A program made the position numbers and the translations under genes. A stretch of 62,254 nt of DNA from Candidatus Ghiorseimicrobium undicola. GTDB taxonomy: Bacteria > Omnitrophota > Gorgyraeia > Ghiorseimicrobiales > Ghiorseimicrobiaceae. Every line of letters starts with the position of its first letter. The first letter of the stretch is position 1. Where the stretch lies: NCBI GenBank assembly GCA_002796125.1, contig PCWA01000015.1, positions 11,650 through 73,903 on the forward strand, in the 5' to 3' direction. A model generated the notes under the pieces. It worked only from the letters and a program-made list of their open reading frames with translations, made no database searches and was not told the origin of the DNA. Below, in pieces: positions 11,080 through 13,394 of the stretch.

Positions 11080-12516
11080 ATGGACCTTATTATCCCTCTA
11101 AAAAAAAACCCTGTCCTTAAGAACGTCATAAGCTTTAGCCGTAAATCCGGATGTAAGGTTTATCTTGTCGGAGGATTTGTCCGGGATTTATTCTTGCGCA
11201 AAGAAAGCCTTGACCTTGATTTTGCCGTAGATAAAGATGCGATAAATTTTGCGCGATATGTCGCCGGAAAAATCGGCGGAAATTTTATTATCCTGGATAA
11301 GGAACACGGCTCAGCCAGGGTTATTGCCGGGCGCCGGGAGGCTTCTTTTACTCTGGATTTTACCGATTTTCGCGGTGAAGATATAACGGCGGATTTATCA
11401 AAAAGGGATTTTACGGTTAACGCCCTTGCCTTGGATATTTTAGATATAGCTGGCGCGCAAAAGCTTTCAGATATATTAATTGATCCTTATTCCGGCATCA
11501 GCGATATAAAAGCAAAGATAATCCGCGTTATAAACAATAAGACATTTTTAGAAGATCCGTTAAGAATGCTGCGCGCGTTTAGCTTGTCTGCTGTTTTGGG
11601 TTTTTCTATGGCCCAGAGCACTGTTAAGTTAATTTCGAGGAATAAAAAAGGAATAACCAATGCTGCTTCCGAGCGGATACGAGAGGAATTGTTTAAGATA
11701 TTGGCAACTGCTAACAGCGCGGATTTTTTTATAAAAATGGATAAGGCGGGGATTTTAAGCGCTATTATACCGCAGGTCAATTTAATGAGGGGCGTAGCCC
11801 AGGGCCCATACCACCACCTTGATGTCCTTAATCATTCGTTTGAAGCAATGCTGCAGATGGATAGGCTGTGTGAAGAATTAAAAAGGCGCGGTAAAATAAT
11901 GGCTTATCTTAAAGAAATTATTGCTTGTGGGCATCGGCGCATAGCCGTGCTTAAATTAGCCGCTTTTTTGCATGATATAGGTAAGCCGGACGCTTTAACA
12001 TACGATGCCGGAAAAACTAAATTTCACGGCCACGAATATATAGGCAAAAAAATTGCTGTCAAAATATGCGACAACCTCAAGCTTTCTTTAAAAGAGAAAG
12101 AAGCAATAAAAACAATGATCTTCTGGCACCTAAGGCCGGGATATCTTGCTGATTATCCTCATATAAGCGAAAGGGCCATATTCAGGTATTTTCGCGATAC
12201 GGCCGAAGAAGGGGTGAGTGTTTTACTTTTATCTATTTCTGATCAGCGCGCAACCCGCGGCCCATTGACTCATCAGGAAAGCCGGATACGCCATGAGAAG
12301 GTTTGTTTATGGCTTGCTAAAGAATATTTTCGCAGAAAAGAAGAGAAAAAGCTTCCGCGGTTAATTACAGGCAACGATTTAATTAAAAAGCTTAAGCTTA
12401 TTCCGGGCCCGATATTTGGCAGGATATTGGAGGCGGTTGAAGAAGAGCAGGCTGCCGGAGAAATAGCGACAAAGGCGCAGGCATTAAAATTAGCAAGACG
12501 GATGGCAAAATGTTAA
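11080..12516 (+). CDS. Class II tRNA nucleotidyltransferase with HD domain (probably CC-adding)
   Basis: GGFVRD, DLD, RDFTVNA, EDPLR, ERIREE, HDIGKP. Confidence 0.88.
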
Positions 12517-13394
12517 TTAAAGGCATTGAAATTGAAGTTGTGAACGCGGATATTGCCCGGATAGAAGTTGATGCCATAGTCAGCGGCGCTGACTCAAGCC
12601 TTACGATACGTAATAATTTAGCTAAATCATTCCATGCTGATCCCGGCATGCCGGTGTTGACTCAGGCCGAAGGGGTTTTAGCAAAATATATTATAGATGT
12701 TGTTGTTTTAAAAGATAACGGCGGGACTGATGAGTCAATTATAAGGAAAGCTGTAGCCGGAGCTTTAAAAATAGCGGATGGCAAAGGTTTTCGTTCTCTG
12801 GCATTTTCCGCCCTGGGTTGTGAAACGGGAAGGTTTGAGTATTCCGCCAGCGCAAAGATAATATCCCAGGAAATATTCCGTCAGATACAAGAAAATAAAA
12901 ATCTCAAACTTAAAAAAATTATTTTTGCCTTAAAAGATAATAACGCGTATGCCGCCTTTAATAAATCGGCGTTAGGATACCTTGGCTATATAAGCAAGAA
13001 AGCGCAATCCGGGCCTTTTATTACCGTAGACGCGATTATTAAGCTGGGAAAAGGGCTTGTCGTAATCGAGCGTACTAATCCTCCCTTTGGCTGGGCGCTC
13101 CCCGGGGGATTTGTTGATTATGGGGAGAGCCTTGAAGAGGCAGTCGTGCGAGAAGCCAAGGAGGAAACATCGCTGGATTTATATAACCTAGAACAGTTCC
13201 ATACTTATTCTGAATATGGCCGTGACCCACGCTTTCATACAATCACTACAGTATTCATAGCTGATGCCGAAGGTAAGCCGCGCGCTGATTCTGACGCGAA
13301 AAATATAAGGATAATAACTAAAAAAGACCTGCAAGAGCTAAGTTTTGCTTTTGATCACAAGGAAATATTAAAAGGATACTTTGGGCGATGTTAA
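12510..13394 (+). CDS. Macro domain (degenerate) - Nudix hydrolase fusion
   Basis: [12 protein letters not shown] and SLAFSALG macro elements; Nudix box [31 protein letters not shown]. Confidence 0.82.

Follow-up and report, generated by a model that had tools for sequence, protein, structure and literature searches.

We analysed a stretch of 62,254 nucleotides (hereafter the window) from Candidatus Ghiorseimicrobium undicola, positions 11,650 to 73,903 of contig PCWA01000015.1 in assembly GCA_002796125.1. An open reading frame (ORF) at 12510..13394 of its plus strand encodes, in 294 amino acids plus stop, a fusion of a degenerate Macro domain (PF01661) to an intact Nudix domain (PF00293). 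The erosion is confined mainly to the segment carrying the ligand-pocket motifs, it recurs in relatives within the class, and it co-occurs with a stand-alone macro gene elsewhere in the genome. We consider it probable that this member of an Omnitrophota Macro-Nudix family has a decayed pocket that no longer binds ADP-ribose, that its Nudix domain still works, and that the stand-alone macro protein made the decay tolerable. The host genome was assembled from a metagenome; the draft has 115 contigs and is 94% complete.

Localised erosion of the macro half

The family is from Omnitrophota, with matches in at least 590 species-level genomes. More than 3000 homologues carry the same two Pfam domains, nearly all of them 307-331 amino acids long, the best being 54% identical to the window protein. 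Regular expressions found all four macro motifs in 72 of the 80 best loci, minor variants in 7 and a truncated copy in one (L031), which leaves little doubt about what the canonical form looks like. Canonical proteins (about 310-320 amino acids) are orthologous to the window protein and have the same domain order, with 49-57% identity overall and 64-71% over the Nudix half. Like the window copy they are often encoded after cca. They carry NAAN, GGG, VIHA and GCGxGGF together with 16 more residues, all of which the window copy has lost.

A Pfam search matched the window protein to PF01661 at 33.7 bits (cut-off 22), over residues 42-118 only, corresponding to profile positions 39-118, and to PF00293 at 70.6 bits (cut-off 21.1) over residues 171-288. 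In a genome-wide profile search the PF01661 score was 35.4 bits. The macro fold assigned in an earlier first-pass annotation of this DNA is thus supported by the profile. Conservation was counted against 88 canonical orthologues, using the columns that are at least 90% conserved among these, and the gene can be divided as follows.

12510..13394, plus strand: the Macro-Nudix fusion gene as a whole
12510..12581, plus strand: residues 1-24, the first macro strands, conserved and including D14-I15 of the family's GDIT motif (7 of 8 conserved columns kept; model strands E6-11 and E22-26)
12582..12725, plus strand: residues 25-72, the eroded ligand-pocket segment (NAAN to SGAD, GGG to RNN, VIHA to IIDV and a 16-residue deletion; 7 of 23 columns kept)
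12726..13004, plus strand: residues 73-165, the C-terminal macro half and linker helix, with an altered second loop (P100S, G105E; 26 of 29 columns kept; model helices 75-92, 111-128 and 144-165)
13005..13391, plus strand: residues 166-294, the Nudix domain (61 of 64 columns kept; match to 2yyh)
13107..13175, plus strand: the Nudix box, G200 x5 E206 x7 R214 E215 A K E218 E219 T S L, read from the sequence

Outside residues 25-72 the window protein keeps 94 of the 101 conserved columns, and 7 further conserved columns lie inside the 16-residue deletion. Residues 25-72 are 21-23% identical to the nearest canonical relatives and the other three regions 54-71%, whereas pairs of canonical proteins are 67-75% identical in this segment, which is where they are most alike.

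The orthologue motif VNAANNxLVMGGGVAGAI is replaced in the window protein, with SGAD at residues 25-28 in place of NAAN and SSLTIRNN in place of xLVMGGGV in the loop that follows, and the replaced stretch is followed by the deletion. The first pocket loop of ADP-ribose-binding and ADP-ribose-hydrolysing macrodomains (NAAN ... GGG) is consequently absent. Further on, the orthologue strand YVIHAATMG reads YIIDVVVLK, with IIDVVVL at residues 61-67. The second, phosphate-binding glycine loop, GCGxGGF in the family, reads GCETGRF as a result of G105E and G108R (ALGCETGRF against ALGCGVGGF, in the longer form FPALGCGVGGF), and two of its glycines, G103 and G107, remain. The replaced motifs and the complete Nudix box confirm what the first-pass annotation had described as a degenerate macro domain joined to an intact Nudix domain.

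MacroD/YmdB-type hydrolases possess a GGGGVDGAIH-type loop with an Asp/His pair. This loop is absent from the window protein and from the canonical orthologues, which have GGGVAGAI. The closest solved relatives of the canonical fused macro domain are Thermus thermophilus TTHA0132 (2dx6) and Af1521-like macros (E 7e-33 for the macro domain of locus L005), which likewise have the GGGVAGAI-type loop and lack the Asp/His pair of MacroD. The window macro domain matches 2dx6 at E 2.8e-5 only, over residues 45-124.

In a draft metagenome-assembled genome of 115 contigs, the odd segment could in principle stem from a mistake in sequencing or assembly, or from a compensated frameshift. However, the remaining likeness to the orthologues stays in the same reading frame, which indicates in-frame divergence rather than a frameshift. 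Furthermore, contigs from two other groundwater runs, possibly of one sampling campaign, cover 12384-13172 and 12485-12967 with zero differences and zero indels, the identical protein is found on 5 contigs, and comparable decay is seen in many other genomes. On the in-frame similarity and the identical contigs from the two other runs we rejected an artefact, the likelihood of which we regard as practically nil.

An AlphaFold2 model of the window protein was computed from an alignment of 55 sequences that is dominated by canonical relatives. It has a mean predicted local distance difference test (pLDDT) score of 87.4 and a predicted TM score of 0.79. The pLDDT is 75 for residues 21-30, 48 for residues 31-40 and 69 for residues 41-50, and residues 32-39 fall below 50. 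As a control, the canonical L005 protein folded with the same 55 sequences reached a pLDDT of 92.3 overall and 93-98 over residues 21-70. Two helices of the L005 model (36-45 and 47-56) are matched in that of the window protein by a single short helix, which is uncertain. Foldseek matched the front half to YmdB, macroH2A1.1 and MacroD2 at target TM 0.6-0.72, so that the structure prediction, too, places the front half close to known macro folds, at TM about 0.7. A three-layer alpha/beta/alpha macro fold is still recognisable in a model that leans on the canonical relatives in its alignment, and the pocket segment is modelled with low confidence.

The consensus of the Nudix box is GX5EX7REUXEEXGU. 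In the 55 sequences G199, G200, E206, R214, E215, E218 and E219 are invariant; the penultimate glycine of the consensus is S221 in the window protein, at a position that is variable in the family. Residues 166-294 match PDB entry 2yyh at E 3e-28 and 43% identity, and in the Foldseek search the Nudix half matched the same Aquifex structure at target TM 0.84 and 43% identity, followed by the ADP-ribose-type Nudix domains of NadM and NrtR. The best NCBIfam matches were ADPR-responsive NtrR at 46-47 bits (cut-off 400) and NadM-Nudix at 38-40 bits (cut-off about 350-450). Weak matches were also obtained to NAD diphosphatase and YtkD, and RppH-type models scored lowest (20-27 bits). By sequence and by fold, the best matches for the domain are therefore the Nudix domains of NadM and NrtR/NtrR and Aquifex aeolicus 2YYH; NrtR is a regulator and not an enzyme, unlike what is expected of the window Nudix domain. 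Judged from these sequence relationships, the Nudix half is most likely closest to ADP-ribose pyrophosphatase domains and the working part of the window protein.

A search for longer proteins carrying the same Nudix subtype gave 8 matches at E <= 1e-20 (P0121-P0128; 49-56% identity over about 43% of the query). The partners are PAS/histidine-kinase or argininosuccinate lyase (609-642 amino acids), with other domains in one protein of 1357 amino acids, and among these matches the Nudix type was never joined to RtcA or to a CCA-adding enzyme.

Graded decay in the family and the stand-alone macro gene

We surveyed the 40 nearest genomes and a sample of 251 genomes of the class for copies in which the macro half has decayed, and such copies turned up repeatedly, in many of its families. 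Internal deletions were found in G002/L007 (256 amino acids), L031 (276 amino acids), G029/L011 and G064/L111, and full-length orthologues with eroded motifs in G246/L112 and G158/L114. In G011, G039 and G037 the front half is heavily diverged, and G025 and other members of family f22 have genes that encode the Nudix domain only. The boundaries of the deletions differ from copy to copy. Across this series 0-19 of 31 family-conserved columns are kept in the pocket segment, 9-27 of 30 in the C-terminal macro half and 57-68 of 70 in the Nudix domain. With 7 of 31, 27 of 30 and 67 of 70, the window copy would represent an early or mild stage of decay.

In four otherwise canonical proteins (L004, L023, P0006 and L013) we observed a short insertion, e.g. 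PACRPAGIL, directly after the macro VIHA strand. L004 and L023 additionally have a substitution of one GGG-loop glycine (MDAG).

The first-pass annotation had proposed that the macro domain is now a binding-only module, which holds ADP-ribose-containing substrates uncleaved and hands them to the Nudix domain. The recognisable macro fold, the retained D14-I15 of the GDIT motif and glycines G103 and G107 of the second loop are in keeping with such a feeder, and binding-only macro domains do exist, e.g. macroH2A1.1 (excerpt of PMC8232725). However, the segment lost here is the one that carries NAAN, GGG and VIHA. The glycine loop is gone, 16 residues are deleted, G105E places an acid in the second loop, and the pocket segment is modelled at low confidence. 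A smaller change, the single pocket Gly-to-Glu substitution G224E, abolishes ADP-ribose binding in macroH2A1.1, according to the same excerpt. This precedent and the loss of motifs together suggest that binding has been lost in the window protein as well. Furthermore, relatives delete the same segment or the whole macro domain while their Nudix domain stays conserved, which points to a dispensable module and not to a retained binder. A feeder role is thus quite improbable.

The excerpt of PMC8232725 also describes macroH2A1.2 and macroH2A2, in which the macro fold is kept, the pocket is spoiled and a pocket glycine is exchanged for an acidic residue, as in the window protein. Unlike it, these are eukaryotic histone variants that are not fused to a hydrolase, and they are altered much less than the window protein with its deletion and lost motifs.

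The genome of the window encodes a second macro protein, of 176 amino acids, on contig C67 (L001 1369..1899, minus strand). It has the motifs NAAN, GGGGVDGAIH, IIHAVGP and SISTGAY, scores 220.1 against NF001664 (O-acetyl-ADP-ribose deacetylase; cut-off 200) and is 36% identical to a canonical fused macro domain.

Among the first 41 genomes, such a stand-alone macro (137-158 bits) was present in 7 of 7 genomes whose fused macro domain is decayed or absent and in 0 of 9 with a canonical one (99-121 bits). In the 251-genome sample an orthologue of the fusion was detected in 95 genomes at E <= 1e-25. These were cross-tabulated by hand, with stand-alone defined as at least 130 bits, as follows.

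Canonical fused macro (at least 85 bits), 53 genomes: stand-alone macro in 2 (G197 and G214); G225 has an ambiguous fragment
Weakened fused macro (83 bits), 3 genomes: stand-alone macro in 3
Weakened fused macro (56-64 bits), 2 genomes: stand-alone macro in 0
Decayed or absent fused macro, 35 genomes: stand-alone macro in 26
Fragmentary and set aside (G096 and G130), 2 genomes: not counted

A Fisher test of 26/9 against 2/51, in which kinship is ignored, gave p = 1.3e-12. Contrasts within families go in the same direction in f1, f17, f29 and f50, and f27 has no difference. In one genome (G037; L017 521-2268, minus strand) a canonical stand-alone macro gene of 180 amino acids lies about 400 nucleotides downstream of the decayed fusion, on the same strand; a doubtful ORF of 82 amino acids is located between the two. 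The association between decay and a stand-alone macro is strong, not absolute.

In L001 (975-1899, minus strand) the stand-alone macro gene overlaps by 17 nucleotides a gene for a MazG-type nucleotide pyrophosphohydrolase of 136 amino acids. The two form another pairing of a macro domain with a pyrophosphatase, here as separate genes.

The gene neighbourhood, rtcA and rtcB

In the window the fusion gene is packed between two genes of RNA-end maintenance. The stop codon of cca (12516) overlaps its start by the 7 nucleotides ATGTTAA, and the same ATGTTAA joins its own stop to the start of rtcA (13388), which agrees with the overlap reported in the first-pass annotation. All genes from nrdR (10118) onward lie on a single strand with tiny gaps. 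A scan of 9400-18600 for promoter- and terminator-like sites gave counts at or below the expectation from shuffled sequence and was uninformative. The neighbouring genes are:

10118..11078, plus strand: nrdR and a bifunctional-nuclease-domain gene (Pfam BFN_dom)
11080..12516, plus strand: cca, CCA-adding enzyme with HD domain (Pfam PolyA_pol, PolyA_pol_RNAbd, HD and tRNA_NucTran2_2)
13388..14428, plus strand: rtcA, RNA 3'-terminal phosphate cyclase (TIGR03399, 336.2 bits; cut-off 250)

The next ORF (14435-14944, plus strand) encodes 169 amino acids with a lysine-rich front half and has no Pfam match. Homologues with 41-54% identity lie just downstream of Macro-Nudix or rtcA in L004, L005, L007 and L023, and upstream instead in a few other loci (L025, L052 and L054).

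The order nrdR-BFN-cca-MacroNudix is found by tblastn in L023, L028, L034, L111, L115 and others, and cca lies beside the orthologue in 10 of 15 relatives' loci. Among the 80 top loci taken from species genomes, 22 have cca upstream and 1 has rtcA within 4 kb. Where cca is not the neighbour, the gene most often has UPF0047 directly upstream (29 of 77 loci) and, downstream, a Ski2-like DEAD/DSHCT helicase gene in convergent orientation (39 of 71).

The conserved row nrdR-BFN-cca-MacroNudix(-rtcA) could be taken to mean that the Nudix domain is an RNA 5'-end enzyme, an RppH-like or NudC-like pyrophosphohydrolase or decapping enzyme and not a free ADP-ribose pyrophosphatase, the macro domain being irrelevant. 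The low-scoring hits to the NCBIfam models of NAD diphosphatase, YtkD and RppH are consistent with this, as is the situation in mycobacteria, where the Nudix gene directly beside the CCA-adding enzyme gene (pcnA-mutT4/rppH) encodes the RNA 5' pyrophosphohydrolase MutT4/RppH and the region is read by the authors as an RNA-modifying one (excerpt of PMC12988327). MutT4 is without a macro domain, and the comparison with the window gene is one of neighbourhood. However, the best matches of the window domain are of ADP-ribose type and RppH-type models score lowest, fusion to an ADP-ribose-type macro domain throughout the family argues for ADP-ribose chemistry, and cca is upstream in only 22 of the 80 loci, UPF0047 taking the upstream place elsewhere (29 of 77 loci). 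We find a dedicated RNA 5'-end activity rather improbable, though a serious rival in view of the mycobacterial case.

The linkage to rtcA is genuine and recurrent. The rtcA gene is rare, being present in 17 of the 251 genomes, and 15 of these 17 also encode Macro-Nudix, as opposed to 95 of 251 overall. A survey of the surroundings of rtcA, as the first-pass annotation had suggested, placed it immediately downstream in the same orientation, with an overlap or a gap of at most about 60 nucleotides, in 7 of the 15 genomes with both genes (G000, G002, G064, G158, G197, G230 and G246), which represent 5 families (f1, f26, f17, f43 and f62). It lies about 6 kb downstream in G074 and G076 and on another contig in 6. 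The macro motifs are eroded or deleted in 6 of the 7 directly adjacent copies, that of G197 being near-canonical, and the copies of G074 and G076, about 6 kb from rtcA, are both canonical. Over 36 pairs from 9 genomes the pairwise identity of RtcA co-varies with that of Macro-Nudix (r = 0.80), which fits old linkage with frequent loss of rtcA.

RtcB was named in the first-pass annotation as a further partner, a proposal that the gene positions do not support. The rtcB gene is widespread (191 of 251 genomes) and in the window it is located at 58281..61271 of the plus strand, 45 kb away; in the relatives checked it lies on other contigs than rtcA, and no visible case of rtcB adjoining rtcA was seen among the genomes examined. 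RtcB is thus outside the cca-MacroNudix-rtcA unit. A bona fide rtcA next to the window gene recalls the E. coli rtcBA operon with RtcR. Unlike in that operon, rtcB is distant, RtcR (PF06956) was not found in the 94%-complete genome and rtcA travels with Macro-Nudix. The window RtcB has 996 amino acids and contains an intein of about 500 residues (Intein_splicing, residues 111-613, flanked by matches to RtcB profile positions 1-50 and 49-426).

It had also been suggested that the Nudix step yields phosphorylated ends for RtcA and RtcB. On chemical grounds this is not expected, since cleavage of an NAD cap by a Nudix enzyme would leave a 5'-phosphate and cleavage of ADP-ribosylated RNA a phosphoribose, neither of which is the 3'-phosphate that RtcA cyclises. 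KptA/Tpt1 (PF01885) and SIR2 (PF02146) were likewise not found in the 94%-complete genome, and a Tpt1-based Appr>p pathway, which we had considered, has no support here.

RtcA makes A-pp-RNA and RNA-3'pp-A (excerpt of PMC8131947). These are formally ADP-X compounds, and one may speculate that the remnant has been repurposed together with RtcA, its macro half holding an RNA end or AMP or contacting RtcA, and its Nudix domain acting as a proof-reader or de-adenylylase that hydrolyses RNA ends adenylylated by RtcA, A(5')pp(3')RNA intermediates or A(5')pp(5')RNA. The presence of Macro-Nudix in 15 of the 17 genomes with the rare rtcA, the direct adjacency in 7 genomes of 5 families with an eroded macro domain in 6 of them and canonical copies at 6 kb, the co-variation pointing to old linkage, and the well-conserved C-terminal macro half of the window protein all speak in favour of such a role. 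On the other hand, rtcA is missing from 29 of the 35 genomes with decayed copies (it is adjacent in 4 and on another contig in 1, and one ambiguous, set-aside genome also has it on another contig), no fusion of RtcA to a Nudix or macro domain was seen among the longer proteins searched, and the numbers are small and the genomes related. Furthermore, we know of no Nudix enzyme that acts on A(5')pp(3')RNA or A(5')pp(5')RNA. A predicted complex of Macro-Nudix with RtcA scored 0.00, which counts neither for nor against binding. We consider this repurposing unlikely. Its more specific form would make this Nudix protein, and not RtcB, the conserved partner of RtcA in Omnitrophota, with a pocket stripped because of RtcA chemistry, hydrolysis of A(5')pp(3')RNA or A(5')pp(5')RNA as proof-reading or resetting of RNA-end cyclisation, and a macro remnant that serves as an RNA-end or RtcA-facing module; we hold this to be rather unlikely.

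Domain decay as the probable explanation

Decay of the pocket in a protein whose Nudix domain still works is in our view the probable explanation. From the known activities of the two domains, the macro domain of the canonical proteins would bind ADP-ribose or release it from a derivative or conjugate, and the Nudix domain would then split ADP-ribose into AMP and ribose 5-phosphate. In the window protein the first step would be lost, the macro domain being a relic that most likely neither binds nor processes ADP-ribose, and the Nudix step, hydrolysis of ADP-ribose or a similar ADP-X compound, would be kept. The macro activity is probably supplied in trans by the stand-alone YmdB/MacroD-type enzyme on contig C67, and it is most likely because this enzyme is encoded elsewhere in the genome that the decay was tolerated. 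The gene is packed by start/stop overlaps into the RNA-end-maintenance row cca-MacroNudix-rtcA. The C-terminal macro half may serve as fold support for the Nudix domain, may have escaped decay so far, or may have taken on a new role next to RtcA.

Several observations weigh against this explanation. The bit-score classes behind the contrast of 26/9 with 2/51 were picked after the bimodal scores had been seen, and kin are not independent. No stand-alone macro was found in 9 of the 35 genomes with decayed copies (completeness 85-97%), so either redundancy is incomplete as an explanation or the stand-alone genes are unassembled in those 9 genomes, and G197 and G214 keep a canonical fused macro domain alongside the stand-alone one. 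Trees built from the conserved part have little resolution: the best of them require 5-6 changes of the label decayed, of which well-supported branches force only 1-2, and an independent-pairs test found just 1 pair on supported branches. In the window protein, the C-terminal part of the macro domain equals canonical proteins in conservation (27 of 30), which fits a retained role as well as recent decay, and the eroded macro domains in 6 of the 7 rtcA-adjacent copies may point to altered function rather than plain loss. As to the substrate, every NCBIfam family score of the Nudix domain stays below its cut-off, and 2YYH, its closest solved structure, has no function assigned in the table of PMC5389931.

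The architecture as such is already named by annotation pipelines, canonical proteins being called 'O-acetyl-ADP-ribose deacetylase / ADP-ribose pyrophosphatase YjhB (NUDIX family)' at JGI. In the literature searched we found no published description of a Macro+Nudix fusion, nor of a pairing of RtcA with a Nudix protein. New here are the degenerate copy, the graded and recurrent decay in the class, the association with a stand-alone macro and the pairing with rtcA that is independent of rtcB.

The family offers a natural series in which one domain of a fusion enzyme decays while its partner domain stays constrained, and the co-occurrence of decay with a stand-alone paralogue fits redundancy driving domain loss. 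Automatic names such as 'O-acetyl-ADP-ribose deacetylase/ADP-ribose pyrophosphatase' over-annotate the decayed copies. Furthermore, the recurrent pairing of rtcA with a Nudix gene without rtcB provides a testable lead on the physiological role of RtcA in these bacteria.

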